A stretch of 58,985 nt of DNA, counting the filler, from Dugesia japonica (lineage: Eukaryota): assembly GCA_001938525.1 (NCBI GenBank). It is 5 parts of 5 records of this genome, joined end to end, with 100 filler letters (N's around TTAATTAATTAA, not from the genome) between each part and the next. Parts side by side here need not be neighbours in the genome. Positions count along the whole stretch, not along the records: positions 27,176 to 35,970 come from MQRL01634639.1; 4 more parts are not named here. One strand, written 5' to 3'. Made by a program: the position numbers and the translations under genes. The notes beneath the pieces are model-generated. The model ran no database searches and was not told the DNA's origin. It saw nothing but the letters and a program-made list of their open reading frames with translations. Position 1 is the stretch's first letter, and each line of letters begins with the position of its first letter. This document shows positions 1-53,200 of the stretch, piece after piece.

Positions 1-327
1 CGAAATGCGGGTATCCTGACGGATTATTCCAACTTGACCAAGGAAGATGCGAATAACGAAAGAGAATGGGCGGCCGCAGAGCGTCAAGCTTTCTATCAAT
101 GGGTTGGTCCCGACCGCACCCATGAAGTTCTACACCGAACTACCATTTTTGATCCAATAACTAATCAGTCCATTGATCATTGGCAAGATGGGCCATCCCT
201 ATTGCCTGTGTCGCCCGCCCACCTTCTTCAAAGTACTAGATTCTCCCTGGATCTTGGTAATACTCTATGGGATCTGCGAAACCAAGCCAGCGGCGGCGCA
301 CTAGAAAACACAGACCCCAATCCTTGA
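1..327 (+). CDS. LTR-cassette ORF2, copy 1 (5'-truncated by window), unknown protein
   Basis: RNAGILTDYSNL...ERQAFYQWVGPDR matches RDTGVLVDRSNI...ERAAYYSWCGPRR (2865) and RDAGILSDKSNL...ERLNFHQCTGPER (30845). Confidence 0.7.
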   Translation, partial: RNAGILTDYSNLTKEDANNEREWAAAERQAFYQWVGPDRTHEVLHRTTIFDPITNQSIDHWQDGPSLLPVSPAHLLQSTRFSLDLGNTLWDLRNQASGGALENTDPNP

Positions 328-556
328 CCTTCTAAGCTACCAGTGTGTTATTATAATTTTTCTAACTAAAATATATGTTTGTTCGTTATTTTCCTTTGTA
401 GTGTGATCTTCAACTGTTAATTAAAGCTTTTCTTTTATAGAAGCAGACCAAATGTAGAGATTCATTAAACTGTTTTAAAAAGAAAAGATACATATATATT
501 TTGCTCTGGATGCATAAATTTCTAAATCTTGCTCGCATTTAATATGTAACCTTTAG

Positions 557-915
557 TGCACTCGTCATTAAATCGCATTTCGGCTTCTACGAAAAAGTCG
601 CGCGACGACAGTTAGGACAGCGAGATGACCTGGGACCTGTATCGTCTCGCCAAGCGTAAATGGGAGGTGGATACCGCCAATGATAATAGTAAAGTAAGCC
701 GCTACCGAAAAAAATGCGTGGCTTTCCGAAAGGAAGTCGAGGCCTCCCATGCACAAGAGAGGGTATGAAAGGGGCAAGTAGAGTCTTTGGTGGATATGAT
801 CCGGTCCTACCAAGTCCAAGAAAATAAACTGGTAGGTGACGTTCTGAAGCTGAAGGCATCCATGCCGCTCGAACCTCTAATGGTTGAGAAAAACACCCAG
901 ACCCCTAAGAATTAA
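557..915 (+). pseudogene. LTR-cassette ORF3, copy 1 (one private TAG, shared TGA at 766-768, KNTQT tail)
   Basis: Follows acceptor ctttag|TG. Translates (M)HSSLNR...WDLYRLAKRKWE...QERV*KGQVESL...MVEKNTQTPKN*. AATAAA at 938. Confidence 0.7.
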
Positions 916-1049
916 TTTCGAGGCCACCTCTTTTATTAATAAATTTTCTAGTTTAAACTGTTTCGTGAATTTCCTTTTTGTTATTTTCATTAGTTGTACA
1001 TTCTTTTACAGTGGGAAAATTTTCTAACATTAATGATAATTTGTTTTAG

Positions 1050-1432
1050 TGACTCGCATCCATTTCTCGAACAATCTTCGTCGATGCCACCGCATGATGC
1101 GCCGCCTACTGGTAAAGAGGCACCTGAAGCGAAAAACCTACCAGGCCTTTTTACGACATTTAGACCAACGAGATAAGTTAATTAAAAGATTGGACACTAT
1201 AGTAAAGAAGCAAAACGACCTTGTCATTCAGACAAAGGCATTAGAAGTAGAGAATAAGCAATTACTACAGCGAAAAATTGAATTTCTAAAACAATACATT
1301 GCGGACTTATCAAGGCAGATTGGCAACCCTAATACCATGCAGTGGGACGTCGATGATGATATCGCTGCATTCAATTTGGTAATAACGACCCCGGACCAGT
1401 GGCTCGATCCAGGAGTATTGGATCTACTTTAA
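1050..1432 (+). CDS. LTR-cassette ORF4, copy 1: basic region, coiled coil, acidic/Trp C-terminus
   Basis: Intact 127-aa frame after ttttag|TG. Strongly similar to 3935-4317 and 31881-32244. AATAAA at 1447. Confidence 0.75.
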
Positions 1433-2491
1433 ATATGTTTACTTTTAATAAAATATTTTTTATCAGACTTGCAATTTCTTTTATTTGGTGATAATACTAA
1501 GGGAAAAATAGTGAACCCGAAATAAAGGTTTATAGGTAGGTACCTTCCATTAAGAGCAAGGTCAACCGCCATAAACTGAAAACCTACCACAGGGACAGTA
1601 AGGTAAATTCTTGAAAGGGTTCCCCTGAGGGCTGTTTTTCCCCAGCCGCCTTTGCCGTGTCACTCAACTCAGGTGGGACCCCAACATTAATATCATTATT
1701 ATTAGTTGGGGTGTCAATGTGGTTCTTATTGGCCTTAGTATTGTTATTAAGCGTGTAATTAATATTGTTACCATCCTCGTTAAAATACCCGTTATTATGG
1801 TNTTCAGAATCATTCATTTACATTGCTNTTGTGTTTTACTACCGTTAACCCATTANTACGTGTTCATGAATCCGCAGACACAATTAATAAAATTACGTAT
1901 GAATTCCGATATTATAGCAAGAAATATCACCAGTAGTAACCACTCCTTTTGAGGCGCTTCAGGAGGACCAAATCATGAATTTAAATATTATATTCGTTAT
2001 TACGATTATTATTGCTATTGTCACCATTAAATCATTACCATCATTAAGGTTTGGTCAATATTATCAATGATTATTGTCAATAAATTATTCACATGGAGTA
2101 TCCACCTACTAATCATTATTTAATTATTATTCTTTCTACCAGCGCTAATTATATCATCATAACAAATACTGTCCCGGTTATCCTTAAAATTAAGGTTAAT
2201 GATATTGTTGTTATTCTCGTTAATATTATAAATATCCTGACGATTTATAGGATTATTAGAATTAAAGAATAGTGTGACCAGTTCTGAAACCTTTCTTTTA
2301 CAAAGAATAGGGATAATACCAAATAATGATATGTTCTAAATTAAGATGAATTTAATGGGTTAATATCTTGTTATTAGAACGAGGCCACTCATTAATAGTG
2401 CATGGCGGCAGTAAAACTCTTCTTGTGGGAGAGATTGAAATAAGTTTCATGATTGGATTAGTAATTCTATTGTTTTTTATTCCCTTAGATA

Positions 2492-2665
2492 ATGCCAGCA
2501 ATACTGCGAGACACCCTTCGTCAAATAAATAAAGCTGTTTGTTTAAAACAATTAATAGCCTACTATTTAACGAGGGTCCAGGTGGAAAACCCCGACGAAA
2601 CCGATCTCCAGTGTTTCGCCGAGATGTTCTCACTCCAGAACCAAGTTGATATATATGAGGAATAG
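2492..2665 (+). CDS. LTR-cassette ORF1, copy 2 (57 aa, below the ORF-track cutoff)
   Basis: MPAILRDTLRQINKAVCLKQLIAYYLTRVQVENPDETDLQCFAEMF... matches MPTELGTMLRLIRK...LRQLVAHLLTR...HPDETDLACFAEMF at 30507. Preceded by acceptor tcccttag. Confidence 0.7.
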   Translation: MPAILRDTLRQINKAVCLKQLIAYYLTRVQVENPDETDLQCFAEMFSLQNQVDIYEE

Positions 2666-2864
2666 CCAATTGCCCCAATTTTCGCTGGAATCACTCCCAT
2701 AGAATACAAATCATTGTCGTGTGGTCTCGTAGGAGATTTTAATTAAACCTATGACTGATTTTCTCTATAAATTATTTTCCACCAATATCAACATGCTTAT
2801 ATTAATTAATTAAACCTTATTCCTAAACCGAACGTTACCGGTTATTAATTGTAGAATCATCATC

Positions 2865-3293
2865 ATGGAATACAAATGGGAAGTGAGTTTAGACATTCGC
2901 TCCGGCCGCACTGTGTTCCAACGATACCAAAATCCCTATGAGCGTGACACCGGTGTATTAGTAGACCGTTCAAATATTCCTGTTGAACAACGCACAGCAG
3001 ATTGGCAATGGGATGCCACGGAGAGGGCAGCCTATTATAGTTGGTGTGGCCCGAGAAGAGACTGAGTCGCGTTTCCACCAACATCCCTTTCTTTTGAACG
3101 ATCTACCGAAGTGCCGCAGATAGAACAAGTATGGCATGATGGTCCATCTTTGGTCGGGCTCACCACGAACCGCTTGCCCTCTACGTCGCAACTGTCTTCG
3201 TTTGTACAAAATTATCTATGAAGTACGCGAAAGGATATGACTAGTAACAATAACGAAAATGCAGAAGAAGAAACCACTGATGTGCTAGTATAA
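2865..3293 (+). pseudogene. LTR-cassette ORF2, copy 2 (stop and frameshifts after 3065; 3' end approximate)
   Basis: ATG shortly after acceptor ttgtag (2853-54). A downstream WHDGPSL matches WQDGPSL of copy 1. Confidence 0.65.
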
Positions 3294-3442
3294 ATTAACT
3301 ATGTAAAAAACAAGTTTTAGATAAAAATTTGTTTTCTCTGTCTTGTTAGTGGTTTGAATAGTTGAAATCCTACCACTTTGTTTTGTTTCGAACTATACGC
3401 AGTCTTAATTAGAGTTCTTAAATTTTATTCTTTATTTTATAG

Positions 3443-3810
3443 TGCATTCGTCTCTAAATCGTCCATCTGCCCCTAATAAACAGATGAGAGAATCCAGTGA
3501 GGACACCGAAATGTCCTGGGATTTATATCGACTCGCGAAACGTCGATTCGAATCAGGAATAGCCAATGCCAACGCCAAAGTAAGGTGTTACAAGAATAAA
3601 TGTGTTAGTATTCGCAAGGAGATGGAAGCTACACACGATCAAGAAAGAACGTGAAAGGCACAGGTAGAGTCATTTGCCGAAATCATCCGGTCCAGCCATG
3701 ACCGCGAAAATAAACTGGTCAAAGAAATCCTACGCCTCAAAGAAAAATCGTACCTAGAAGCCCTTATGGTCGACAAGGGAACACAGACCAACTCCAACCG
3801 TTGTACCTGA
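3443..3810 (+). CDS. LTR-cassette ORF3, copy 2 (in-frame TGA 3652-3654, KGTQT tail)
   Basis: ttatag|TG start. ...QERT*KAQVESFAEIIRSSHDRENKLV...MVDKGTQTNSNRCT*. AATAAA at 3826. Confidence 0.7.
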
Positions 3811-3934
3811 AGCTGTTATTTTACAAATAAAATTTGTATAGTTTTTAGTCTCCGTCATGTTATGTGTTAACTCAATAACTCAATATCAATAACTTTCATT
3901 GTTTCTTCTTCAATATTGATGATTACTTATTTAG

Positions 3935-4317
3935 TGCCACGAATTGTTTTCCCCACAAGTTTGCGAAGGTGCAACCGGATAGTGCGCCGTTTATTATTGG
4001 AGCGCCACCTAAAGCGCAAAGCAGATAAGGCTCTCTTAAAACATCTTGGCCAGCGCGACAGACTTATTAAGAAGCTAGACATAATATTAAAAAAACAAAA
4101 CAAATTGGCGACACAAACTAAGATTCTAGAAGCCGAGAATAAGCAGCTGTTATTAAGGAAAATCGATTTTTTAAAGAAATATATAGCCGATCTTTCTCGG
4201 CAAATCGGCAACCCAACTTGGATTCAATGGAATGATGAGGATGATTACGCTGCGTTCAATTTTACAATGATCGACCCGAGCCAGTAGTTGGACCCTGGCG
4301 TGATGGATGATTTATAA
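3935..4317 (+). pseudogene. LTR-cassette ORF4, copy 2 (TGG>TAG at 4285)
   Basis: atttag|TG start. Homologous to 1050-1432; the frame continues LDPGVMDDL* after the TAG. AATAAA at 4328. Confidence 0.7.
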
Positions 4318-4699
4318 ATGTCATTTCAATAAATGTTGTGAGAATCATTGATTTAAATTTTGTTGTAAGCTATAGAAAATGGTAGAACCCGAATAAAAAG
4401 GCTTATGGGCGCGCACCTCCCATTAAGAGAGAGGTCAACCACCATAAAAGAATACCTAACCTAGGGGCGTTAGGTTAAATTCTTGGCTGGGTTCCCCTGA
4501 GGGCTGTTTTTCCCCCAGCCACAAACTTTTCTATCCAAATCAGGTGGGACCTCAACAAATATTTTAATTTTGTTTTAATGAATAAAATAAATAAAAAATT
4601 TTTAGGTGTAATTGATGGGTAAAAATACCAACATAATTATGTTGGGACAGAACCCAATCGATGATATAAACAAATTCAATAAAAATCAAATAAAAGAAT

Positions 4700-6423
4700 A
4701 TAAAAATTAAATTAAAAACGAGATTATAAACAAAATTTATTTGTCAAAAATCAACAATAAATTACAAGTAATCCCGAAAAATTCGGAAGGAAGTCAACTG
4801 ATATTCAAATTATTTGGATCCCAATCAGAAAATAACAAATAAATCTATAAAAAATGGTAAAATTAAAAAGTAAATCAAAATAAAATTACCATAAAATTGT
4901 ATTTTCTGGAAAATCGAATAGTTCTTGAAATAATTAATGGAATAAACTAGAACAAATAACCAATAAGGTTGAAAATTGGGTCCAAAATCGACTATAAAAG
5001 GGTCCTGAAAAACACAAAAATAACAATTAATCAAATTAGTTTTCAAAACAAAATTCAAAACTCACCGAATTAATCGTTCCAGCCAATCAGAGGTCTAATT
5101 AAAAGAAACAATTATCAGAGAAACCCATATTAGATTTTAAAATTAAAAATCTAAACATTTCCAAGAAATTCCAGTTCGTCATGAAAGCTTCCGTAGAAAA
5201 GTCAATTCGTCTCTGGAATAGCAGAATCCATTATCCAGACACGAATAGGTTATCCAGACAACAGTGAATTAGTAGCCCACTAGATAGTAGCGCACTAGAT
5301 CACTAAGAAATATTAGTCGCTTATAAACTACTTACAAATAGTAAATAGCTAAATTAAATTAAATAATGATTATGAAAAATTTGTATGACTCATCATTTTT
5401 GTAACAAATAAATGAGCCATGCTGATGAGTCATTGCCGGTCTAAACAAAGACCATGACTCATCATGAATTGAAAAAATTTTTAGTTGGATAATTTTTATC
5501 TAAATAGTCAACAATATCTTCTATAATGTTATCTATATTCATTGTATATATCTTTTGATTTAAATATTTGTTTATATTAGGTGCTTTGTTTTACGTGCAT
5601 TCATATTGCCATGTCTTTGTTTAATTTGCATATCCATTGTTTTTTCCTTACTTAACCTACATTTATATTGCATGCTTGTGTGTGTGTATAAACTTTTACT
5701 AAATAAAACTTTTAAAGTTAATAACCAAACAAAAGGTAATAAGTCAACAAATTTTGCTATTATCCAAATAAAATATACTATATATATAAAAATCAACTTA
5801 ATAAATAAAACTAAGCGAAATAACTAAAAAAAAAATTCTATTGTTAAACAACTTAAAAAAAAAACTGAATATAAATTAAAAATAAATTAAATTAAAAAAA
5901 CAATAATAAAAACAAAATTTATTTGTAAAAAATCAACAACAAATTACACGTAATCTCGAAATATTCAGAAGAAAGTCAAATGATATTCAAATTGTCTGGA
6001 TCCTAATTAGAAAATAACAAATAAATCTATAAAAAAGGGTAAAATTAAAAAGTAAATCAAAATAAAATTACCATAGATTTGTCGTATTTTCTGGAAAATC
6101 GAATAGTTCTTGAAATAATTAATGGNATAATCCAGAACAAATAACCAATGAGGTTGGAATAGGGACCAAAATCAACTATAAAAGGGTCCTGAAAAACACA
6201 AAAATTAATTATTAAAGATTAAAATTTAATTAAAACACCATTAATCAAATAAGTATTCAAAACTCACCTAATTAATCGTTCCAGACAATCAGAGGACTAA
6301 TTAAAAGTTTCAGAAAAGCCCATATTAGATTTTAAAATTAAAAATCTAAATATTTTCAAGAAATACAATTTCATCACGAAAGCTTCCGTGAAAAAGTCAA
6401 CGAATAGGTTATCTAGACAACAG
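4700..6423 (+). repeat. Direct duplication (~4700-5264 and ~5880-6423) of an LTR promoter-like segment with TATA box
   Basis: Near-identical ~550-bp blocks, each with CTATAAAAGGGTCCTG (TATA at 4993, 6177), similar to CCTATAAAAGGACCCCTG at 28961. Confidence 0.75.
5271..5470 (+). mobile_element. Maverick/Polinton terminal fragment
   Basis: AGTAG...TAGATAGTAGCGCACT plus TGAGTCAT/TGACTCAT repeats homologous to 13149-13380. Confidence 0.55.
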
Positions 6424-7192
6424 TTCATTAATTTCGAAAATCTAGGAAAATAACCTGTCAAGTTTCAAAATCCATCATCAAATTTGAAGTATAAATACGA
6501 TTCCCACCCAGTTGCGTATTTAACCGAAAAACTTCATTATTTTGAAAATTCCCATTGGCAATACCAGCATCAAATCATTTATCTTACCAGAGGAATATCG
6601 TTGTTCTAAGTTTCAATATCAGTCACCAGAGGAAAACGAATTCCCAATCTATCATATCTTCCAAGAATTACCCAGTTCTGAAAAGCCAGAATCCATTTCA
6701 AAAATCTTAATTCTATCCAATCACAATTCGTTCTACCTTGCGTCATCCCCAAGTCAAAATTTCCAGTTCCAGCATAGCAGTCAAAAAGGTATATTAGTGT
6801 TAATAATTTTTCATTTCTCTCATTTCATCAATAATCGTATAATTATAATAATAATAAATACGTAATAATAATGATAATATAGAGTCGATTTTCTGGCACA
6901 GTATCAAATTTTACTTATTTTTCTGCTTGTTCTCCTGCGGATTTTGGTATTATTTCGAGATGTTTTATTATTTCTTCTTCATTAAAATTATGCGTTTTAA
7001 CCCAATATACAGATCAATGGTAAAATTAATAATTTTTAAAAAAATAGATTTATTTTATGATTTGCATCAAATTACCGAGATAAATTTAAAATTTAATGTT
7101 ATAATTAGTGACCAATGAAAATTAATTTTAATCAGATTAATGTAAATTGTGTTTCTATTTAAACGTTTATAACCAGAATGAATTGAGCAATA

Positions 7193-7225: not shown

Positions 7226-8605
7226 CATCTATGAAAAAAGAGAAACATTGTTTTGATCTTTGCATTTGAAAAAAAATTTTAAATAAAAAGTCAATTATAC
7301 GAAGCCATAAGATGCATAATTTGAGGAGCTATTAAAAAAGCTATCTCTCATTTCCTTTTCGCAAAATTTTTCAAGACTCAAGTTCAAGATTTTACTAAAA
7401 CGCGATTCACCATACTGGTATAATATCATAGTTTTTATGTGAGATATTAAGAATAAACTAGACAGTAATTCAATTTCGTTTATGGTTCTTTAATATCCTT
7501 AAAATGGCATACTAATAATAATATAATAATACTAATAACTTAAAAATGAAGTCAAAGTAAATTTCTTACGAACTATTACTCTGTTCACTCACTGTCTTTC
7601 ATATTCAAATTCCATTTGTTCATCAAATTTTACATTTATTTTTCGCACTCTCCATCTCATATTTCCTTGATCCACTAGGCGTTAAAAAATTTGGAATATT
7701 AAACTCTTATATTCGGAAATTTTAATTATAATTTCTTTTTTTTATCTACAGATGTTTATTGATTTCATATTCACAGATTTTAAAACTTTTGTTGGGAAAA
7801 AGTACAACCAATTCGTTCACAAAAATAAAAGCTATAAAATAGAAAAATAAGTAAAGTACAAGTTTAAAAAAAACCCAAACCAGGATAAGAAAAACCTTTA
7901 TTGAAAAATGCAAACAAATATATAAAAACAAATGTCACTCAATCGTTGGAATGGTTTTGGAATATTTGATCATTCCTATAAAATAAAATAAATTACTCAA
8001 AAAAAAATTTGGTTATACAAAAAAAATTACCTTTTTTCCCGGATACTTACAAGAATTTGTGTGATATTTTTGTAAATTTTCATCGAAAACCAGCCAATCG
8101 GAGAGCAAATCTGAACAAAATTTTATATAAAAAGGACTCAAAAATAGACAAAACTTACCCTTATTAGTCGTGTCATTAGAATTAGTGTCTCACCAAATTC
8201 GAATTACGGTCTATAGAATCAAGAAGAAATCTATAAAATTCAATAAGAAATTACTTGCAAAAATTTTTTCAATCTAATTCCAGCCAAATAAACGCGTAAT
8301 TATCATCAGTGATTTCTTAAAAAATTACATAAAATCTGAATTAATAATTTTCGCGTTCTTACCAAATTCCCAATTTGACAATCATATGACATTGGAATTT
8401 CTCTGGATCAAGGCCATCAAATTGCGGCTTCATTATCTAGAAGAAAACAGATAATTACTTTTGAAATTTCCACATACTTACTCGGTAAGATCATCAGTTC
8501 AGATCAGAAGTGGTTGTCACTTGAATCGACATTCCCATCGACATTTTCCCTATTATCTTCATGAACCTTCTTATCATTGATATTATCGTTTTATTGTTAC
8601 TTCCA

Positions 8606-8673
<68 letters not shown>

Positions 8674-8723
8674 NNNNNNNNNNNNNNNNNNNNNNNNNNN
8701 NNNNNNNNNNNNNNNNNNNNNNN

Positions 8724-8789
<66 letters not shown>
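8606..8789. repeat. (ATT)n microsatellite spanning a gap
   Basis: Pure TTA repeats on both sides of an N run. Confidence 0.95.
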
Positions 8790-11700
8790 GAAGCATTTTT
8801 AATATTATCGTCGCCATTAGTAATTAGCATTATCATTTGATTATTTTTATCCTTATGTTTATTAACTATTGTTTTTGAATTATACTTATTAATAATATTA
8901 TTCTTCGATATTATCCCAATTACTGTTATTATGTTTTAGCATTCGTATTATTTTTAATAGTTTGCTGATAGTTACCATAGTTAATAGGATTATTATATTA
9001 ATTTAATACTAAAATAGTTGTCACCATTAAATACTTATCGTTAATTTTATTAAAACCACGCACAGAGAATAAGCAATCGAGTGATCAGATACACAGTCAA
9101 CCATCAACATCCGCTGCAGTTTCTCCTCCCCCGAAAAGTCCGGAAGATTTTTGTAGATTTATCTGATGACGATTAATTAACAAAACATTAAACTCATGGT
9201 ACAGGTTTATGTAAAATATTATAATCACGAACGATTGAGTTTTCCTTTGTTACGACTTTTATCATCGATAGCTGTAACGAACCCAAATTATACGCAGATG
9301 GTGAGCTCATTAACTCTTGATGTGGGGCAAGAGCCACCGGGGCTGCCATCAACATACTCTCAGGACGAGTATATTAAATCTCAGTTTGTGGGTTGTGAGG
9401 TATATAATTTTTTAGCCATATCACTGCAACTTATTTATTTCATATATTTGTAATTTATCTCGCACACGTGTACGCTAACTTGTTGACCAAATAAAAAATG
9501 CAAATTAACAATGAAAACAAAAATTATAATTCTTACAATTTCATTTTCAAATCGTTGATCCTTAACAAAAGACAGACTCTGAGAACTTTTAATAATTTTT
9601 TTCAAACAAATTGTTTTTACCACCTTTATTATCGAAACAGAATTTTTAATCAAGTATAAATATTTTCTGTCGGTAAGATTTTAACAATTTTAAATCATAT
9701 TATCATTATCATAAAATACCCTTTACTCAATGAAGATCTCCCTTACATACCTTTGCAAGATTTTCAATATTTTCAATGGCAATTTTCGAATCTACCTCTC
9801 TTTGTAAAGATTTTCCAAATAAGTCAACTGATAATTTCCGAGAGTTATCCAATTTTTTAACATCCAAGTCACACGCACAAAGACACGATTTCTTTTCGAA
9901 TCGAGCAAGCTAAAATTTTCATTTAGCTCTTAATTATTATTATTTTAGTGATTGCCTGGATCATAAAAAATCCATGCAAAAATTGTAAGTTTTAAATTGA
10001 TTTGTAATCGTTAATTAACTTGACAACGTCAAACCGTTATTGATTTGAGTGCAGAAGATGGGTATTTCATTTGCGATAATTTGCATTGTACATAGGATCA
10101 TGAAAATATTATGTTATGACTTTAATTTGCTTGTTATTCACTAATAATTATACGAACCCAACAAAGATTCAGATGGTGCGCTAATGCACTCTTAACGGAG
10201 GGTAAAAATCACCGAGGCTGCCACCAACGTATTCAAATGGCGGATANATCAAATCCTTATTGGTGGGACATGTAGTGATATTTAACGAACCATACCACCC
10301 ATGACTTCATTACTAATAATAATAATTCATTGGCAAGTTTTCTAAATTTAACTGATATTAATTAATTTCTGCATTTTACATCTTCAAGATTTTAGACCGC
10401 TTTATTAACTTATAATTAACTTCATGAATTACTTATTCGTTTAATTTTGAACTAATTTTTTTTTCGTTTCAATTATTCTACTTCTTAATATCTTTATAAC
10501 ATTTTATATAAATATTTATATGGTTTCCTGCTCCAAACTATCCCATATTTCATGCTTTCGCGTTTCAACCGAACAAGTATCTGCGTGTTGGTGAGTTTAT
10601 TTTTAGTGATTTTCGAGTCTTGTATATACTGTTTATTGTCATACACCCACTCAATAATCTCATTTATTTTCTTATTTTTTATTTTAAGAGTTTCATCAGG
10701 ATTGTTTTTGTCAAATTTTTCAAAAATTTATTTTTTTACTATTTTCTGTTATTATGCAGCTGTGCCTGCTATTCATCATTCAAGTCTTATTATTTTCGGT
10801 TTCTGTTAGTTTGTTTCTGATAATGTAGTATACACTGATTTGCAGAGATTTATTGAAATTTCATAATACTGACTGTCAAACGGTGCCAATCATTATTTTC
10901 AAATTGTGTTACCATTATGATTCCTTATTGCTAACAAAATTTTACCATATTTTTACAGATCATCATATGATTTCAAAATTTGAATGTCATCTGATTGAAA
11001 AATATGCTGCGTGTTCATAATTGCACCGATAAGTTTTTAAAAACCTTTAAAACAAATAAAAAATAAATATCAATAAAATAATAAACCGCATTTGCGGACA
11101 TTCGCAAATTTCTGTAAAAAGTAATTATACATCGTAATTATAAATAATAAAATAATACCAATCTTGAAAACATTAATAAATAGTTTATTTACATTATATT
11201 TTTATAATTAAACATTCATATTGTCTTTTATTATCGAATTACTAAAATAGTGACTCGAATTTTCTATTTTTTACTTTAACAACAATATTTTAACCTTTTA
11301 TTAAGTAATTAATACTATATTACAGTGTTTTTTTCACGATTATTATATCTTCAATTCTTCTAGTTGTATTTTATTTAATAATTACTTTTACTACATAGTT
11401 TCTAAAATTCTTATTTTCTATCATTTATCAATAACCATACATTTCTGTTATTATTATTCTACCATTTATTATAAAATTGTTTTTATTCACATTAATATTT
11501 ATAAATCAAAATATTTTACTTAAAAATAAATAGCGATATTTCAGTTAGACCCCTTTTTTATTTTAAATCTGTTTTATTAATTGTTTTAACTCCAGAATTT
11601 TATTTTGTCTTTAATGCCGGGTTCGCTTTTTTTGATATTTATTTTGTATATTTTTATTTATCAATTTTTCCTCCAGTTCAGTGATTCGTATAATGAATAT

Positions 11701-27075: not shown

Positions 27076-28960
27076 NNNNNNNNNNNNNNNNNNNNNNNNN
27101 NNNNNNNNNNNNNNNNNNNTTAATTAATTAANNNNNNNNNNNNNNNNNNNNNNNNNNNNNNNNNNNNNNNNNNNNATTTAAATGTGTTAAAATTACAAAA
27201 TTACTTAATTATTACTTATTTGAATTTCTAAGCTGCAAATCTACTTCATAAAATAATGAATCCCAAAATACACGAGTAAATAATCTTCCTTAGGGGGTAA
27301 TTCCTATGTTTAACTTCAATTTAAAATCAAAATACAAATTAAATAAAATAATTTCATAAACTGTTTCTTTCCTTTTTGAACAATTGTTTATACATGTATC
27401 TGTAAAACCCATTATAAGTTTTATGTTTTGGGCATATAGACTCATTCTCTTTCATTGCCTTTCATTCTCTTTCATACTTTTTATCAAACGACATAGAGAA
27501 AATTATCTCATTAGTCCAGATTCAGGGCAAGGAGATAATTGATTAATAATAAAAAAAATTATTGATTATTATATTTATTTAATAATGTATTTCAATGTTG
27601 TTTATACCTATTATTATAATAAAATATAATTAAATCTAATAATAAATTTATAAATCTAAATAAAATAAATACAAATCAAATTAATCTTATCATTCTAATT
27701 CATTTGAAGTTTACAATTTATATTATCCATGACAATAATAATGATAATAATCTATTAGATTAATAATAATTGTAATAATAATATTATACATAACAACAAA
27801 TCTAAATCTACATTGTTAAATATGATTTTAATAAATCTTAATTTACAATAAAAATCTGATAAATCCTAATAAATCTACTTATAAATAATAATAATAATGA
27901 TTAAATAATACCACTACTACATATAATAATCTAACTCATCATACAATATTTGTTTTCCAAGTTCATTCCAAAATTATTAAATCTGTACAACCATAACTCA
28001 CAGTCATCACACCCTTTCATACCCTTATCTCCTTGACCTGCTCAATTTTAGTTTTATTAATATTTGTAATCTAGCCCAACAATATTATTATTATTGATTC
28101 ATGTCTTTCATTATTAATATTTATAAAATAATAATAATATAATACTTTTTTCATATAGACACCTATATGCATACATGCAAATATAGTCGACCCAAATATA
28201 AGCGGGACCCGGTTCAAAGTTTCCTAGCGGGGCCTTGAAAAAAATTTCATATAAGAAATAATAATTTATTACAATTTGTTATTTATTGCGTTCATTTAAA
28301 GTGTTGGTGTGAAACACCCGTTAAAAAAGGAACTAAGGCCGGAAAGCCTGAATCAACAGAAAAGAGCGGCAGGACCACCATATTTACCAATAATAAAAGG
28401 TAAAGCGCGAAATAACCATTAGAAAAGAATAAAACAAAATCGGAAATAGATATGAAGAATTGGGTAACATAAAACCAACTTACATCAATATTGGGAATTA
28501 AGAAGAATTATTAAATTAATAATAAAAAACCAAGAAAAGCATTAGAGAAAATAATCAATTAACAGAAAAATATATTAATTAATTTTAAAATAAAAAGAAG
28601 CAAAATTAGTTAAAATTCTGTTTTACTCGAATAACTCCGCTCAAGGAGATCGGAAAGAATCCGGGTAAGAAAATACACCAAGAAAATAACAAGACGCATC
28701 AAAGTTGCTAGAAAGAAAAAACTTACCACCATCCAGAAGGTTGTTACAGGGTTTTCAAGATCGGGCCAATGAGAAACCTAAAAATAAAAATAAAACAAAG
28801 TCATTTTCAATTGTCATGTGTCACGCTAAAATTAACTACCAATTGCGGCACCAAAACTCGAAGAATATTTTAGAAAATTGGCACTGGAACCAATAAAAAG
28901 TCGAAAATTAAATCTAAAAATAACCAACAAATCTGAAAGAAGTTAGGGTGTGGAGAAAAT

Positions 28961-28978
28961 CCTATAAAAGGACCCCTG
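28961..28978 (+). promoter_or_regulatory. TATA box of the LTR-like element
   Basis: CCTATAAAAGGACCCCTG; homologous boxes at 4993, 6177 and 8126. Confidence 0.6.
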
Positions 28979-29327
28979 ATTTTAGCAAAAAAAAACAAAA
29001 AAACAAATCAAACAAAAAATTCTTTCCTGTTGTCATCAAAATTTTACATTGTCAACGTTAACTGCGAAGGAATTTGATTCAAGAATTTTATCATCAAAGG
29101 AACGCTCATTCTAACAATATTCATCGGAAAACCCAAATACGATCAGTTATCGCGCATCGATTATCTGAGACATCGTATAGAGTAATTTGATTGTTCAGGA
29201 TTACAAATTAATTAGAAATTGTTCTGAATAGTAGAACCTATCAATACTCTGGAGATTGCTAATAAATTTCAAGGGCTTTAAGAGGAAAAGAGAACCCGTT
29301 GCAGAAATTCTTATCAAAATATTTTAT

Positions 29328-29334
29328 AGTAAGT
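29328..29334 (+). promoter_or_regulatory. Candidate leader-exon splice donor A|GTAAGT
   Basis: Perfect GTAAGT about 365 bp downstream of the TATA box. The last exonic base A completes ATG with the AG|TG acceptors. Confidence 0.55.
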
Positions 29335-30506
29335 ATGGTTATGTGTTTGAAAATAAAATAAACTTTAAAATGCCTAATTTTGATATCTTGAATTATTATG
29401 ATAATAATAAAGAAAAATTATAAAAACTAAGACAAAAACATTTTTTTTACATTCAAATAAATTTATTTTAAACCGCATGATCCCGCTGATCCAACAATTG
29501 ACTCTTTGCTAGTTGCACTCCGATTCATGCATGCATCATTTTTCTCTTGTTCCAATCAAGCATACATTACTAAATAGGCACTATCGTATTCCCAGTAATA
29601 GTGATAGAAAATTTATAACATAATCACTCAAACCCATAACTCAGTCAGTAAAATGAAGGGTTAATACACACACCACTTTTTCAGTGTGTATTACTATAGC
29701 ATCTTAAATTGTTTACAGCTGCTAGGCAACCTGTTTCAGCGGAATTTTTCAAAGTCTGAAATTGGACTTATCGCGGAAATTTTATCAAATATACTATTTA
29801 CCTGAGTAAACAAGCAGAATTTCTTAAAGCTCCCACAGAAAATACTACTTTTGTAAATATTATTATTATCATGATTATTAATCCTATTATACTTATTATT
29901 ATCATGAAATTGCCCTTATAATTATTATCTGGTGTAACTTTCTTATTAGTGTGATTATCATTATCATCATTAAGATTGATAATCGTATTATTAGTATGGA
30001 TAATAGAACTATCCTTATAGTTGTAACTTGATGAGCACCATTATTATAATTATTACTATAATTCTTATTATGATTATAATTATTACCGTCCTCATTATTG
30101 GTATTAGTATTATTATGACTGTTGCCAATAGTATTATTGTTTTGATCTTTATAAATAATTCGACTATGATTCCTCAATGTCAAAACCGTATGGGACTTAA
30201 TATTACGAAGATTTATTATTGGATTTATTAACTTCATTATGGAAATAAGTATTGTTATCGTCTTAGTCCAGCGATGATGAGGATAATGTCTTGAATATTA
30301 TTATTCCTATAAACATTATTATACCATTAGAACAGGGGTGCCACTTGGCGACGCCATTCTCCTTATGAGTAAAATCTCACTAATAACGTATTGTATGCTG
30401 GAACTTACAACACTAATAACAGTAACATACACATCATGTAACCAGGGTTAAACCAAGGGAGTCCTGAATTTCAATGTAACCTTTGGTCATTGGTCATATT
30501 TAAATT

Positions 30507-30701
30507 ATGCCCACAGAACTGGGAACTATGCTCAGATTAATTCGGAAACAAAGCAAGACCGTCAGATTGAGGCAGTTAGTGGCCCACCTATTGACAAGGG
30601 GTGCAATAGAACACCCAGACGAGACGGATCTAGCTTGTTTCGCGGAGATGTTCCCCTCAGTGACTCCAGTAGATATTGATACCGAGAATATGCCCTTGTA
30701 A
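30507..30701 (+). CDS. LTR-cassette ORF1, copy 3 (64 aa)
   Basis: Homologous to 2492-2665 (PDETDLxCFAEMF). The acceptor appears mutated AG>AA. Confidence 0.7.
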   Translation: MPTELGTMLRLIRKQSKTVRLRQLVAHLLTRGAIEHPDETDLACFAEMFPSVTPVDIDTENMPL

Positions 30702-30844
30702 ACAAGAATGCAATCCGTCAATCGCTGTTACTTATTTAAAATGAGCTAACGAGTAGAATAATTATATTTGTTGCTTATGTTGTTTCCTTAATTAATTTAT
30801 TTATATATTATAATTTGAATAAAATTTCGGTCTATTTATTTAGA

Positions 30845-31184
30845 ATGGAATCGATATGGGAGCGTATAATAGATCGACGGACTCGTCGTGTGATTTTCCG
30901 ACGTCATCACAATCCCCATAATCGGGATGCTGGAATTCTGTCTGATAAGTCAAATTTACCTCCCGTCGAAGCCGCGGTAGCTCGAATCCAGAGCTTCGGG
31001 GAGCGATTGAACTTTCACCAGTGCACTGGGCCGGAGCGTTAACTCGCTACCCCGTTCCTTTATCAACATCCGGCGCGCCCACTATTAGTACAGGCGTTTA
31101 TTAACAACATGCTCTGGGGAACTAGAGAGCCCTCAGGTCAGAAGATGTCGAAAACACCGCTCCTTCTGAAAACCCAACCCCTGA
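30845..31184 (+). pseudogene. LTR-cassette ORF2, copy 3 (internal stop at 31040 and deletion)
   Basis: tttag|AATG start. Homologous to 2865+ and 1-327; ends ENPTP*. Confidence 0.65.
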
Positions 31185-31404
31185 CTCTTAATGTGCATTT
31201 GTTGTTATAGAAATTGATTAATAGATACGTGTTTTAATTTAGTCTTAATCTACTTTCTCCAGTTGTAATCTTATAGATAAAGGTTTCTTTAATATTACTA
31301 TACAGACAGTTTGTTCATTTTCATCCCTTAAGCAGAGTCACATGGGTGTCAGTAACTTGGATGCTAATACTTTGAGAAAAAATTTAATATTATTCTTTGT
31401 TTAG

Positions 31405-31865
31405 TGCCTTCCTCGTTAAACCGTCCTACAGCTCCTACTAAGAAAATCCGGGATACTAGTGAGGATCTCGAGCTCACCTGGGACTTATACCGACTTGCAA
31501 AACGTCGATGGGAGGCCGAGATAGCCACTGCCAATAGTAAGGTGACCAGATATAAGAAAAAATGTATCGCCCTCAGAAAAGAAGCCGAGGCCTCCCACCT
31601 TCAGGAACGAACCTGAAAAAACCAGGTGGAATCCTTTGCTGAAGTTATCCGGTCCGGCCATGACCGTGAAAATAAACTGGTCAATGATATCTTACATCTC
31701 CGAACACGAATGCCTCTCGAGCCGTTGATGATCGAGAAGGGTACTCAAACTCCTGGAACTAAATTGCATAAGTGTTTCATTGTAATAAATTTGTTAGCCA
31801 AATTTTTTCTACGAGTTTATGTTAATGATTCATTCAAATTCTTGTGTCAAGTTACCTTATGCTAA
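31405..31865 (+). CDS. LTR-cassette ORF3, copy 3 (in-frame TGA 31614-31616, KGTQT tail; natural stop probably lost near 31760)
   Basis: gtttag|TG start. ...QERT*KNQVESFAEVIRSGHDRENKLV...MIEKGTQTP. Confidence 0.7.
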
Positions 31866-31880
31866 TCTAATTATTTTTAG

Positions 31881-32244
31881 TGCCTCGTATCAATTTTCCT
31901 AACAGTCTTCGCCGATGTCATCGTATCATGCGCCATTTAAAACGTCGAGCAGACCAGGCCCTCCTTAGACATTTTTCTCAGCCTGACCGCTTGATAAAGA
32001 AACTAGATCTGATAGTTAAAAAACAGAATGAGTTAGCGAACCAAACCAAGGCCTTGGAGGCCGAAACCAAAAACTACTGTTGAGAAAGATAGATTTCCTA
32101 AAACAGTACATCGCCGACCTTTCCCAACAGATTGGTCAGTCAACTTGAGCCCAATGGGACGACAGTGACGATGTCGCGGCCTTCCATTTTCTAATGCATG
32201 ACCCAGACCAGTGGCTGGACTCAGGTGTGCTAGACGGCTTATAA
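31881..32244 (+). pseudogene. LTR-cassette ORF4, copy 3 (short deletion, frameshift near 32070, TGG>TGA)
   Basis: ttttag|TG start. Ends QWDDSDDVAAF...QWLDSGVLDGL*, like copies 1 and 2. Confidence 0.7.
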
Positions 32245-33414
32245 ATGTCAATTCAATAAATGTTGTGCGTATCATTGTCTTAAATTTTTGTGTAAGTTAA
32301 GGGAAAATAATGAACCCGAATAAAAAGGTGTATGGGCGTGCACCTCATATTAGGAGAGAGGTCAACCACCATACACTGAATACCTGACCTAGGGACGTCA
32401 GGGTAAATTCTTGAAAGGGTTCCCCTGAGGGCTGTTTTTCCCCAGCCACCTTTTTCTTACCATCCAACTCAGGTGCGATCTCATCAAAAGTAATGAAAAT
32501 AAAATTAACATTTCAAACAAAAAACGTTATGAGTTATGACACATTTATATTTATTTATGATTGTTTACACAGTAATACTTTTTATCAATTCTAAATAAAC
32601 GGATTTATCATTTTTCACATGTTTTATTACAAATTTTTTAATAATACCACCATAACTTCAATTTTAGGCTAATTAAGACTCAATAGATAAAATGGCTAAA
32701 GATCTAAAACGTTTTTGATTAATAGTAAATCTCAAATAATTTTTTATTATTTTCAATTTTGAGAATGATATTTTACAGGTAAAGTTAATATTATGTTTAA
32801 CGACGCGGTTCTGCATATAAGCATTCATGCATTGTATTATTATACATAAAAAATTAAAATAACAATTAGCTTTGTTTAGAATTATATTATGTGGTGGGAA
32901 AATATTTTATTAAGATAAAATAAATTAATTTATTCTAAAACAATAACAGTTTATTTATACAATTTTATTATTTTTAATACATAATAATTTTAATTTCATT
33001 ATTAAATGAAAGAATTTTTACAAATAATTTTCGGTAATTTTTTATTTATTTAAAATCCGTATTGTATTAAATTTCAGTTTTAATGACACTTTTTAACTAG
33101 TTTTTAATTTCAATTGTATTAAATTAAATTTTAAAAAGTTCATTAAATTTAATTTTATAATATATAAATATTAATTTAATCTAAACTACTAAAGTAAATT
33201 AATTTTATTATATAGATTTTATGTCTGATTTTCCACTTTAAAAGTATTTTTTAAAATTTTTTTTGCACTCTAATATATTTATTTAATTTATGATATTAAC
33301 GTTTTATAAATTAAGGAGCATTTAATTTCAGAAACAAGTTTGAATTTGAAACAAGTTTAATTTTACTTTTTTAAAATCAAGGAAAACATTAATTATAAAT
33401 ATTTCAAACATAAT

Positions 33415-33720
33415 GGCCAGCAATATTGTCGACCAGGGCCACAATACAAAAATAAAAATTATCCGCGGGCCGCACCCAAACTAAAAAAAANNNNNNNNNN
33501 NNNNNNNNNNNNNNNNNNNNNNNNNNNNNNNNNNNNNNNNNNNNNNNNNNNNNNNNNNNNNNNNNNNNNNNNNNNNNNNNNNNNNNNNNNNNNNNNNNNN
33601 NNNNNNNNNNNNNNNNNNNNNNAGTAAATTTGATAACGATTTGTCCGTCATGGAACTTCTATATTTAGATTTTATAAATTTCATTGTTGAAAAGGTACTT
33701 TCACAAAAATAAGACAATTT
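33415..33720 (-). mobile_element. hAT (SPIN/Buster-like) transposase dimerization-domain fragment and subterminal sequence
   Basis: SYFCESTFSTMKFIKSKYRSSMTD is a typical hAT C-terminal motif; GCGGGCCGCA subterminal motif near 33465. Confidence 0.75.
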
Positions 33721-36084
33721 TTATAAGGAAAATAATTTAATAAATAACTTTGACCCACCAAAGACAGAAGTTCTAATTACTTTGGTAGAAATGTAAATTA
33801 CACTAATTTTTTAAATAAATCATAATATATAATAGGCCAAGCCTGGCGTTAGGTTGAAGCGAGCGAGTCAACAACTTTTAGTTCAAAATAATTTCTTTCA
33901 AAAATCATTCAGTAATACCATCAAGTAAATAGAGTAAGCGAGTTAAGACAACTTAAAAATAAGATGGTATTATGCAATCAAGTACTAAGGAGTCTTTTAA
34001 TAAGATTTTTTCTGATAATTTATTTAAAATGTGTAATGGCTATTTATTGCAATCTTTAGCGAACATTTTATACAATTTATTCAAATGTTCCTAATTGTTC
34101 ATATAAACGATTGTCATTGAAAGATTGCTAAAAAATACTCAAATATTTGATTTTGGGTTTTAAAAAATGTGGTTTGCAATGTTTAGTTGTATGATTTTGT
34201 AAGTATATAATCACATAAAATTTTAAAATTATTTTTGTTTTTAATTTAACTCCGCACGCACCAGGCCCTTTAAGAGACTTACATAAAATTTGCACAGCAC
34301 ATATTACAATTATTTAACTGTTGGCAACAAAAATGCACTAGAGGGATCCAAAACTATTACTTCAAAATATCTGGTACCAGTGAAATGAAACTTGTTACTC
34401 TCTATTATCACAATTTAATTTACTTTAATAATATTACTTAAGATTACATAAAACTATCAAAAAATTTACAATATTAAATAATGGTTACTCCTTTGATGTT
34501 CAACTTTTCAAGCTAACACATATTTCTACTGTTTTTTTTAAAGAAAAAACTCCAATATAAAAAAATAGTTAACAAAATGATGAATTAAATTTGTAAACAC
34601 ACAATCATATTTAGATTTTCCAAAAATNCACTCAGTATATTTAAAGTTAATAACTCAACGGAGCTGATTTTTAACTTGTTAAATAATATTTGAAATTTCA
34701 AACCTACCACAAATATACACACAATTTTTGTTTATTTTCAAATGAATTAATACATTTAAACAATCAAATAATTATATTCATATTTTTACAAATTTAATAC
34801 TAATAAGAATAATATTAATAAAAATTATAATATATTTAAAATAATTTATTCATTAAAAGTAATATTTACAAATATTAGATTTTAATAAGATATATTACTG
34901 CAAATCAAAACAACTTTCCAAATAGATATTGATCAATATTTTTAATATATATTCTGATTGTTTTGTGTCTAGAATTTATAATTAACACGATAGAAATAAA
35001 GCAAATAATTTATGCCCTTAATCTATCAAGTCTAAATGAAAAATATAATCTTCAATAAATAAAACTCACCCATGACAGATTCTAACTAAATTTATTGATT
35101 TTGCATAAATAATTAATAATTTAAAATAGAATTTATTATTTTATAAAAATCTTTCGATTCTACCTCCAGTTAATATAGTAAATAAATCAGATTGTTCGGA
35201 AGATTTTTTCCGTTTTTACCACCTCACGGTTTTTAAAGCTTTTCACGTATTTGTGAAAGTAATATTTTTATTTTTAATAATAATGAGTAATCCTAAATTT
35301 GTTTAAATATGTTAGTTGATTTGGCTTGTTTATATTTGTTTGACGTCATTTTCAATTGGATAGTGAAACAGTACATTTTCAACATAATTTACATTTTAGT
35401 ATCAAGAATAGCAAATCAGTAGCGAATGCGCATACAAAAATGCAAGATATGTACGGTTTTCTAACTTAAAGTTCAATCACTTCAAACCTCTGAAGATTAA
35501 GTGATAACTATCATTAAATAAATATTAATATTTTTTTCATTATTATTTTTTTGTCATCNNNNNNNNNNNNNNNNNNNNNNNNNNNNNNNNNNNNNNNNNN
35601 NNNNNNNNNNNNNNNNNNNNNNNNNNNNNNNNNNNAGTGGTTCATTTTATCGATGTAATAATAACTTTAATTTAATAAAACCAGTAAGTAGTAATACAAA
35701 TAACTAGATAAAAAAGAAACTTGCATAATCTTATCCCTATCAAAGCAAAACACACAACAAAATTACTCATGTTGATCGCCAGCTCTCATCAAAAGTCTGT
35801 AAAAATTAGAATTTTATGTGATCCGAGACACAAAAAACTAAATTTTCCGATAATAATAACCGTTTTTAATTTGAATTTTTATAAATTATTGATTAGCGTT
35901 TAATAATCTGCATAATTATCTAAAGAAATAAATAAATTTTATTTTACTGATATTTGTTTTAATTTGGAATNNNNNNNNNNNNNNNNNNNNNNNNNNNNNN
36001 NNNNNNNNNNNNNNTTAATTAATTAANNNNNNNNNNNNNNNNNNNNNNNNNNNNNNNNNNNNNNNNNNNNTAATTACATCACTA

Positions 36085-50273: not shown

Positions 50274-53200
50274 TGTAAAGATTAAAAATTGAAAATCGCA
50301 ATTTAAATTTTGAAAAAAATGTTATAAAAGATTTCAAGAATTTTTTTAAATATTTAAAAGGTTTGTTTAAATATTCAGCTTTTAAAAAAATAGTTTTTTG
50401 ATTTTTTTAAAATTTTGTGTTATAAATAAAAATTTAATGGACTTTTATGAAAGTTTATCAGTAACTAACATGGCGACCAACGCTTCAATGTACCAAATTC
50501 GAGAAGTAATAAACCCAGGAATTTATTGGCATGTTGACGATATTGAGCAGTTTATCAATGGTTGTAAATATTTCCAATATATTGGTGTAAAGAAAAAGGA
50601 TAAAAACCTCTTGTTGGTTGGCTTAATTGATAGAGAATCAAGAGAAGTATACGAATGCCAAGATGAATTATTAGATTTTAAGGACCGACTGCGTTCCACA
50701 AAAAGACTCTTATACAAGACTTAGAGAAAGCTATAAAATACAAGAGAACGGATGAACACGTTTATGTGTACAAGAAAAGAATTTTAACACTGGTCGATAA
50801 AATCTTTGCACACAAACTAGACAAAGAAGAGATGACAAATGAATTAATATTCAATAGTTGTCGTGATAAGAGAATGCAAATAAAGATTAAAGGAGGCAAA
50901 GTAGCTAACTAAGAAGAGATATTTGAAACAATAAAAGCAAATGATGAACTAAAGGAGGATCTGAAAGACACAGATAATATAAATAAGAGGGAGAGTTACA
51001 GCAATGCAGTAAAAAGAGGCATGACCAAACAACGCTTCTCAAGAGTTAACGGAACTCAAATGGAAGATAAAAAAGAAATTACATGTTGGTCATGTCAGAA
51101 GATGGCTCATATCAGCAGAAATTGTCCGGAAAAGAAAAGAATGTGTTACGCATGCGGATCAGAGAATCATATAAGAAGGAATTGTGACAAAATTATATGT
51201 TCAAGATGTGGAAAAAGTGGACATCATACAGAACAATGTTATACTAATTTGGAGAAAAGAGGTGTATGGACTAAGGATAAAAGACAGCACAATAACGAAC
51301 AAAGAAACGAAGCAACACAATACAACCGAAGAGAAGAAACAAACAGACGATAATAACAGATTCCCAAAACCGAGTTGGAAGACATCAGTTAATAATGGAT
51401 TCAGGAATAGAGACGGCAGTAGATATACAAACTTAATGATAGAAGAGAATGAAGAGTGTATAAAGAGAGGAGATAATATTTATTATTATGACGAGGAGAC
51501 AAACAGCTATAAAAAAGAGACCCCAAACAGACAAACGCCATAAAAAGTCGAGATGATTGGAGCAATGAATTGAAAAACAATCTAGATCGCAATATACATA
51601 TGTATAGTAAAAGTGGTTTATTAATAGTATAAAAGATGATACTAAAGAGAAAACAGTCGACAGAAAAGTTTATGAGTATTTTAAAGAAAGATTTTAAAGA
51701 TGAGAATGAACAAGTAAAAATAAAATTATGATATAATGCAAGGTAGGCCCAGTATGGAAAATAGAATTCAAGGGAGATATATGGACTACCTTTTGGATAC
51801 AGGTTCAAAGATAAACGTGGTGAGCCTCAATATTTTTAGAAGTCTGGCAAATGTGGAGCTGATGGGAATTGATGACGTGTTAAAATGTGCAAATAATAGC
51901 AGAATGAACTTTTCGGGTAAGACATTTGTAGAATTAGAGATCGCAAACAATGAGAAAACAGTACAATTCACCGTAGTCAAAGAAATGAGTCCGAATCATA
52001 TCAAAGGAATAGACATGCAACGCCAGTTTGGATAGCGTTTAACGAAAGAAACAAAGGGTTATGGGGATGAACAGTGGATCTGCAACATAGATACAAAGTT
52101 TGGCCGTAAAATCGAGGATTCTGAAAGAGAACAGAGAGCTTTAAAAATTTTAATGACAAAACAAGACGAGAAACTGGAAAGGTAATAGTAAAACATTGGG
52201 AAGTATTCATGGTAAATAACTAGGATGTCGAATGCACAACGTTGGTTGAACAGACGATAGTGACAAAGGGTAACCAAATAAATACACCATTGAGACAACC
52301 CATGAATCTAGAAGAAAAAATAGATGCAGCCATAAAAAAATTTAGTGGACGCTAACATTATAAGAAAATGTAATTTACAGTGAAACACGCCACTGATATG
52401 CGTCTGGAAGAAAGAAAGAAAGGATGTGAAACTTTGCTTGGACTTTAGAAAACTAAATACAGTTACGGAACGACAGACCATCCCGATGCCAAACGTAGAA
52501 GAAATGTTAGACACTTTGTATGGAGCCAAATATTTCAGTACCATAGACTTGGGAAACGCATATTACCAGGTACTGTTAGAAAAAGAGTCAGAAGAGAAAA
52601 TAGGCTTTTCGACAAAAAATAGTCAATATTGCTTCACAAGAATGCCATTCGGCATAGTAACAGCCCCAGGAACATTCCACGTAGTAATGACAAAAGTATG
52701 GACGGGCTAGTTGAAGCAATGGTGTATATGGATGACATAATGGTATTCTCAGAAAGACTAAAAGAACACTATATAACACTGGGCCAGGTACTAGAGCGGA
52801 TCCAAACGGCAGGGTTGTGAGTGAATCCAGAAAAATGTCACCAAAATTTTACGCAAAGTAGTGAAATTTCTTGGCCACATAATAGATAAAGAACGAATTC
52901 GAACAGATCCAATTAAAGTCGAAGCCATTAAAAATTCTGAGAAACCCAAATGCGTAAAAAACCTGAAAAGCATGCTTGGAATATGCAATTATTACGAAAG
53001 AATCATCAAAAATTATTCAAAGAAATCAAGAACCCTAGAAGAATTATGCGGAAGTTACAGCATGAAACTAATATGGTCAGATGGATGTGAGAAAGATTTC
53101 GTATAAATGAAACAAGCACTGATAAAATCACCTATTTTAATATTTCCTGATATAAAGAAGACATTTATTTTAGATACTGACGCCAGCTTCGACGCAATAG

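Follow-up and report, generated by a model that had tools for sequence, protein, structure and literature searches.

Two small open reading frames (ORFs) in a long terminal repeat (LTR) of a repeated retroelement of the planarian Dugesia japonica begin without a start codon, which raises the question of how they could be translated. The LTR lies on record MQRL01634639.1 of the GenBank assembly GCA_001938525.1, which supplies positions 27,176 to 35,970 of the window, i.e., the whole stretch of 58,985 nucleotides (five parts joined by filler letters) that was analysed. We consider it probable, at about 60%, that the start codons of these two frames, ORF3 and ORF4, are built by splicing: the A that ends a predicted leader exon would be joined to the TG that opens each frame at one of two alternative acceptors, as suggested by DNA patterns in several copies of the LTR. 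In the proposed order of events, transcription would start from a TATA box at 28963, splicing would join 29328 (or 29182) to 30844, 31405, or 31881, and the complete ATG of ORF3 and ORF4 would exist only on spliced RNA. Polyadenylation would follow ORF3 or ORF4, and each mRNA would give one protein.

Probable acceptor sites of ORF3 and ORF4

The array of ORFs is present in three related copies, all on the plus strand, as are the features described below unless the minus strand is named. Copy c3 is a solo LTR of 4185 bp (28302..32486, with TGTTG...CATCA ends). Copy c1 (1..1686) is partial and holds the end of ORF2, ORF3 (557), ORF4 (1050), and the LTR end CAACA at 1686. Copy c2 (1953..4557), also partial, holds ORF1 to ORF4, with acceptors at 2488, 2854, 3442, and 3934 and the LTR end CAACA at 4557. 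ORF3 starts, at the T that follows the bar in TAG|TG, at 557, 3443, and 31405, and ORF4 at 1050, 3935, and 31881. The preliminary description had placed both starts, lacking an ATG, exactly at such acceptors; this holds in all six instances, and its donor and acceptor coordinates are likewise correct. In c3 the ORF3 exon spans 31405..31765 (about 120 codons, with an in-frame stop at codon 71) and the ORF4 exon 31881..32244 (frameshifted near 32070; the open copy in c1 has about 127 codons).

The TG is kept at all six starts and leads into an open frame in phase 1, which is the longest frame in five of the six, the exception being c1 ORF3, in which codon 20 is a stop. Among internal columns with T at codon position 2, xTG is found in all three copies in 3 of 36 (Leu, Met, and Met/Val); 2 of 27 four-fold columns have G in all copies; and TG comes next after 89 of the window's 1415 TAGs. 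Three-way identity rises across the two acceptors from 0.23 and 0.25 upstream to 0.52 and 0.50 downstream, and the first 15 codons past them already show fewer nonsynonymous than synonymous differences per site (pN 0.15-0.28 versus pS 0.66-1.15). The 20 bases upstream of each acceptor include 8-13 T, with no other AG within about 25 nt. A match to YTRAY, the branch consensus, lies 14-26 nt upstream in five of the six and 38 nt upstream in the sixth. By blastp, ORF3 and ORF4 do not match each other at E<=1, and the phase and TG common to these two unlike ORFs are most simply explained if one shared donor completes a Met.

These six instances are in fact two sites in three related copies, which gives some room to chance, i.e., to TAGTG occurring in AT-rich spacers beside decayed ORFs. 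On the plus strand, 15 of 116 T-rich YAG sites have TG next to them, some within ORF-free spacers. Chance is nonetheless very improbable, given the conservation step at the AG, the saturated synonymous sites, and the same arrangement in both ORFs.

One point against the splicing model is that the acceptor G and the TG form an in-frame GTG in all six instances, available on unspliced RNA. The earlier claim that ORF3 and ORF4 cannot be translated from such RNA was thus too strong, since this GTG and early internal Mets exist (ORF3 codon 24 and ORF4 codon 16/17, each in two of three copies), neither of which the preliminary description had noted. Translation could then begin at either, with no split codon and with the RNAs made otherwise, and the lack of a leader junction among the joints listed (see below) suits this explanation too. 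We regard it as rather improbable: in five of the six instances the GTG has a T at -3; no internal Met near the start is common to all three copies of ORF3 or of ORF4, and the codons ahead of the internal Mets are under selection; many ATGs would precede the frames on unspliced RNA; and the TA before the G, the T-rich tracts, the AG exclusion, and the branch-like motifs suit acceptors.

If the sites are acceptors, the host's own trans-splicing deserves a mention. D. japonica is a flatworm, and all flatworm spliced leaders reported in the extracts of PMC12582326 at hand end in ATG, so that a leader with a whole AUG joined to these acceptors might provide the start. It would be in frame for c2 ORF1, over 58 codons. 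In ORF3 and ORF4, phase 0 closes after 4, 4, 4, 0, 15, and 19 codons; a spliced-leader AUG as their start is excluded by its wrong frame, and for the array as a whole this origin is next to negligible.

The preliminary description also held that ORF1 and ORF2 have an ATG just after an acceptor. This stands for the ATGs at 2492, 2865, and 30845, which lie 3, 10, and 1 bases past an AG (A of AG at 2487, 2853, and 30842), and fails for c3 ORF1 (30507), where the corresponding position lacks an AG.

The predicted leader and its donor

Upstream of the array, c3 has a TATA box of a putative promoter (28963..28970, with matching boxes at 4993 and 6179). The sequence TTTTATA|GTAAGT lies at 29328|29329, 365 nt past TATAAAAG (28963), and its GTAAGT (29329..29334) is the predicted donor. 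From the TATA box to 31881, 10 sites match the donor at 5/6 or better, and this one alone reaches 6/6. The predicted non-coding leader exon would extend over 341 nt (28988..29328, taken from TATA+25) and end in A. A second donor-like site within it, A|GTAATT (29182..29187), is also preceded by A and would yield the same ATG as the 29328 donor.

The leader has no ATG, when 5.9 or 4.9 were expected from two kinds of shuffles (3 of 2000 shuffles in each, P=0.0015). The same 341 nt have seven ATGs on the reverse strand, the following 341 nt have eight, and 6 of 298 window tiles lack one. No ATG-free run in the LTR is longer than the one at 28816-29335, and the donor lies 6 nt before the end of that run. 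This stretch looks like a scanned 5' leader, and its lack of ATG rules out an upstream ATG in the leader exon.

Several observations speak against this donor. GTAAGT is expected 0.48 times by chance in 2.4 kb, and 11 of 30 plus-strand GTAAG are preceded by A. The description of a perfect donor preceded by A is borne out for GTAAGT and for the A; in c3 the site is perfect on the intron side only, its exon side being ATA, and the joined ATG would have T at -3. Other LTRs of the family agree in part. Copy c4, the 5' part of another LTR (4640..5346, starting with TGTTGG), has a promoter that aligns with that of c3 (TATA at 4993) and an A|GTAAAT at 5340|5341, 348 nt past its TATA, with 1 ATG before and 10 after. 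Its ATG depletion is not significant (P 0.054 with base shuffles, 0.67 with dinucleotide shuffles), and its donor is out of column alignment with 29328. Copy c5 shares the promoter with c3 but has no such donor there, and G precedes the donor-like sites of the LTR ends at 7790 (8484, +359) and 18533 (about 19042, ~+330). Conservation of A|GT across the family, which had been proposed as a check, appears weak: A is found in c3 and c4, G in the two other LTR ends, and c5 lacks the donor.

A different upstream exon is possible, though unlikely. The acceptors would then be real and used from a phase-1 donor in the internal region of the element or elsewhere in the LTR, with ORF3 and ORF4 as alternative last exons, whose TG would either still be completed to ATG or follow on from a short N-terminal peptide, as in retroviral accessory genes. 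Five other donor-like sites of c3 also have A before them, the window has only LTR sequence of this element, and if the array lies in U3 (the unique 3' region) its copy in the 3' LTR would be downstream of all internal donors. There is also precedent: in the ZAM, Beagle, and idefix subclades, short peptides are joined to env, according to extracts of bioRxiv 10.1101/2023.08.03.551782. Against this, a split codon other than Met would leave the TG of both ORFs without a reason (see the 3 of 36 columns above), no strong donor-like site is common to c2 and c3 between ORF1 and the ORF3 acceptor, and the c3 leader has no ATG to begin a peptide.

Sequencing runs bear on the choice between splicing from 29328 and the alternatives; among those listed as containing the sequence, none is on record as RNA. 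No junction from 29328 to an acceptor is present among the joints listed (15 of 69 and 15 of 18 in two alignments), which counts against the splicing model, and no breaks at the donor or acceptors are found among the loose ends listed (24 of 1259 and 24 of 412). Two contigs of X1, which is RNA by guess only, also count against it, as they run unspliced over the donor and the ORF2 acceptor with more than 31 letters on each side; their weight is limited because unspliced LTR RNA is expected anyway. Two joints, 31266-31401 and 31754-31885, end near acceptors; their ends are not GT..AG and unknown letters stand between. One X3 contig starts at 30845 with five unmatched letters, too few to read. 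The raw RNA runs X8, X9, and X12, aligned at 80% likeness, have almost no cover of the leader or acceptors and were not used as evidence: their aligned reads are mostly poly(A) or ATT noise, and X9 has 19 reads over 31600-31621. The proposal of a start codon split between a shared leader and the two ORFs is supported by the phase-1 frame, the invariant TG, the branch-like motifs, and the ATG-free leader; the 29328 junctions that it predicts are not among the joints listed.

The LTR, its genes, and its signals

A repeated retroelement left the sequence 28302-32486 as a solo LTR, a context that the preliminary description had not identified; this is seen from its ends, its target-site duplication, the number of related contigs, and empty sites. 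The TG...CA ends have a short inverted repeat (TGTTG at 28302, CATCA at 32486; CAACA closes c1 and c2), and AAAG flanks c3 on both sides as a 4-bp target-site duplication, seen in this one copy. Run X7, whose kind is not on record and which was taken as DNA on account of its even cover and single-contig depths near 10, gives 11,450 contigs that align to the c3 stretch and related empty sites in which about 28285-28295 is joined to 32487-32498, with other letters between.

The window gives only the LTR sequence of this element, whose internal region lies outside it: no gag-pol linked to a c3-type LTR was found within the window, nor a start resembling a primer-binding site behind the LTR ends of c1 and c2. 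Other parts of the window carry remnants of reverse transcriptase, protease, and zinc knuckles (Pfam matches in 3 of 9 pieces), with no tie to the c3-type LTR. A search of metagenome and viral contigs with the conserved 3' motif as query gave no related loci. Further LTR starts with TGTTGG are found at 4640, 7790, and 18533. The LTR pieces cluster in 1-6430, where the end of c1 abuts inner c2, likely by nesting, c4 begins 82 bp past c2, and the promoter region is duplicated near c4 (4667-5205 versus 5845-6400, 83%). The start at 18533-18560 is almost the same as that of c3 (17 of the first 18 bases) and continues into N gaps and unrelated-looking sequence; by nhmmer, this LTR has no likeness to c3 beyond its start. 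The LTR-like start at 7790-10330 (TGTTGG at 7790, TATA at 8126, donor-like G|GTAAGA at 8484) includes an ATT-rich tract, and behind it two related GC-richer stretches (9277-9380 and 10152-10255, 71% alike) could represent small ORFs from another lineage.

All four ORFs of c3 have a GC content of 46-50%, and the spacers between them 23-27%. ORF1 (30507..30695, 62 aa) has its own ATG and a counterpart at 2492-2662 with 54% identity, and ORF2 (30845..31042) has its own ATG one base past TAG|, with an early stop in c3 and c2 and a longer frame in c1. Over the whole ORF, the six copy pairs of ORF3 and ORF4 have pN 0.17-0.27 versus pS 0.75-1.10, synonymous sites being saturated between copies; the single pairs of ORF1 and ORF2 have pN 0.29 versus pS 0.78 and pN 0.42 versus pS 0.82, respectively. 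These substitution patterns indicate that the four small orphan ORFs are genes under purifying selection. A stop or frameshift interrupts five of the six ORF3 and ORF4 copies, which the preliminary description had not pointed out; the sole open one is c1 ORF4.

The stop at codon 71 of ORF3 is found in all three diverged copies (766-768, 3652-3654, and 31614-31616), and the 48 codons past it still show purifying selection, with ratios of nonsynonymous to synonymous substitution rates (dN/dS) of 0.31 and 0.16 and a third pair that is saturated. Related copies in X1, X3, X4, X6, and X9, and about 97% of the X7 depth, lack this stop. It may reflect recurrent mutation, read-through, or a short form; strand-biased hypermutation of c3 was rejected as its source because the change spectra are symmetric.

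Searches with the products gave no relatives. None of 10 LTR ORF pieces reached the cutoff of a Pfam family; word searches with ORF4 and with the ORF2 alignment, both among near lengths, gave none; and the ORF3 profile had no match among 1.84 billion representatives and none among 599 candidates from metagenome contigs. ORF1 was compared with Pfam and the window only. The N-terminus of ORF2 (W-E...D..(S)GR..F...N-P; 2865-2940 and 30845-30920) loosely resembles a WW domain, with no Pfam match at E<=1. The ORF3 and ORF4 products look soluble and helical. A model of ORF4 built from three sequences has a single helix over residues 7-90 (mean predicted local distance difference test, pLDDT, 80.8; predicted template modelling score, pTM, 0.42). 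K-x-T-Q-T is present near the C-terminus of ORF3 in all three copies, which make up three of the six occurrences in the window's 117,966 six-frame residues. TQT is the anchor of LC8 binding, and many TQT peptides fail to bind, according to extracts of PMC6607443. The predicted motif of ORF3 could bind this host hub protein (DYNLL), and the LTR ORF products are likely accessory factors.

The 3' part of the LTR carries the remaining signals. An AATAAA follows ORF3 (31784..31789 in c3; 938 and 3826 in c1 and c2) and ORF4 (1447, 4328, and 32255), so that its earlier-reported presence in all three copies was correct. As this concerns two sites, each with a chance of 0.13 of one AATAAA within 40 nt at the window rate, it gives modest support. 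A candidate second promoter and U3/R border (32240..32276) combines a TATAAA over the ORF4 stop, the AATAAA at 32255, and a TCATT at 32272 that resembles the initiator motif. In c2 and c3 the TATAAA lies on the ORF4 stop and the TCATT 32 nt later; c1 has TTTAAA, and TCAGA at +35. The TATAAA may be mere stop-codon context. Another AATAAA (32319..32324), kept in all three copies (1521 and 4392), is the candidate LTR poly(A) signal, and is followed by the most conserved part of the LTR, an R/U5-like end (32325..32486; equivalents 4398-4557 and 1527-1686). In predicted hairpins of this 3' end, a conserved motif pairs with the final 20 bases; of the 38 predicted pairs, 4 have changed on both sides among three sequences. 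Rfam gave no match for this end. Loose ends suggest that the LTR 3' end is common to more distant LTR lineages.

The TATA candidates are at 28963 and 32240 and the AATAAA candidates at 31784, 32255, and 32319. Were the TATA at 28963 the only promoter, R or U5 would exceed 3 kb. The second TATA, the AATAAA at 32319, and the conserved end behind it would suit an R and U5 of ordinary short length. The odds are about even that the genomic promoter and a short R lie at 32240-32340; the array, along with a promoter of its own, would then be part of a 4-kb U3, in logic like the internal promoter of foamy viruses. More tentatively, this U3 might be a self-contained virus-like unit, with its own promoter, a one-base leader, alternative acceptors and poly(A) sites, and four orphan proteins, a possibility that we hold as distinctly doubtful in its entirety.

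Known systems and neighbouring sequences

Comparable logic is known from the adenovirus major late unit, in which one promoter and a shared non-coding leader serve alternative acceptors and poly(A) sites, with genes that have their own AUG; the likeness of this DNA virus unit to the flatworm array is in logic only. Closer in kind is the env gene of the springer subclade of Drosophila errantiviruses, whose start codon takes AU from a 5' exon (bioRxiv 10.1101/2023.08.03.551782, extracts). Like ORF3 and ORF4, it is a Metaviridae gene with a start codon assembled by splicing to a 5' exon, and the springer-type feature of a partial codon kept at the acceptor with the frame in matching phase is present in both flatworm ORFs. 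It differs in being split AU|G, in one gene downstream of pol, whereas the flatworm array would use A|UG for a pair of alternative small ORFs and have its promoter, donor, and acceptors in one LTR.

The Burro (GYPSM1) elements, giant Gypsy-like LTR retrotransposons of planarians, are the nearest candidate family for the c3-type LTR, a comparison made by description. As given in extracts of PMC6431247, they share with it the flatworm host, the repeated state, multi-kilobase LTRs, and accessory ORFs; they total more than 30 kb, with as much as 25 kb of internal sequence, and carry a giant Gag-Env-Pol polyprotein with BIR, BCL2, and MATH domains. The account in these extracts gives no LTR-internal ORF array or splicing. 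In the MDG1 group of Drosophila, too, small accessory ORFs (sORF1 and sORF2) flank a poly(A) site (PMC11952523, extracts). Unlike those of the flatworm array, they lie upstream of gag, their long-read transcripts are unspliced, and sORF2 is a membrane protein, versus the soluble- and helical-looking ORF3 and ORF4.

Among vertebrate retroviruses, the Sag gene of mouse mammary tumour virus (MMTV) lies in U3. MMTV Sag and the genes of the foamy virus internal promoter (tas and bet) resemble the array as accessory genes expressed through a second promoter or by splicing (PMC12789967, extracts). The foamy virus promoter lies in env, outside the LTR, the extracts describe no start codon split for several genes, and there is no sequence likeness. 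An exact-phrase literature search, with most subscription journals outside it, found no account of an array inside an LTR whose genes share a one-base leader, and LTR-encoded ORFs go unmentioned in extracts of PMC8532177, PMC11410931, and bioRxiv 10.64898/2025.12.11.693146.

If the splicing model is true, the LTR would be more than a promoter: a small multi-gene operon regulated by the acceptor that completes the start codon. If, in addition, the U3 were the self-contained unit described above, each solo LTR remaining in the flatworm genome would be an autonomous multi-gene cassette, in which splice choice is the on-switch for ORF3 and ORF4 translation. Because solo LTRs far outlast full elements, a planarian-type genome could hold many orphan accessory gene copies that are able to act on host cells. 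Annotation pipelines would miss such genes, which lack a genomic ATG and gave no homologues in the database searches.

The rest of the window holds one host exon and older mobile elements. The exon, of a DHX35-like DEAH helicase (25910-26590), has one protein match at 89%, while a further 15 are at 54-65%, and those that carry a name come mostly from flatworms; tblastn found no further DHX35 exons in the window. It ends at a GTAATT donor, the same hexamer as in the second donor-like site of the leader. Decayed Gypsy-like gag/pol elements occupy 20388-24031 and 43070-45143 on the minus strand and 50274-54863 on the plus strand, the last with short terminal repeats (50274-50435 versus 54694-54863, 85%). 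Two related decayed ORF regions on the minus strand, 14705-16269 and 58350-58652, are 66% alike and have no Pfam match at 0.001; we take them to be reminiscent of remnants of Polinton DNA polymerases.

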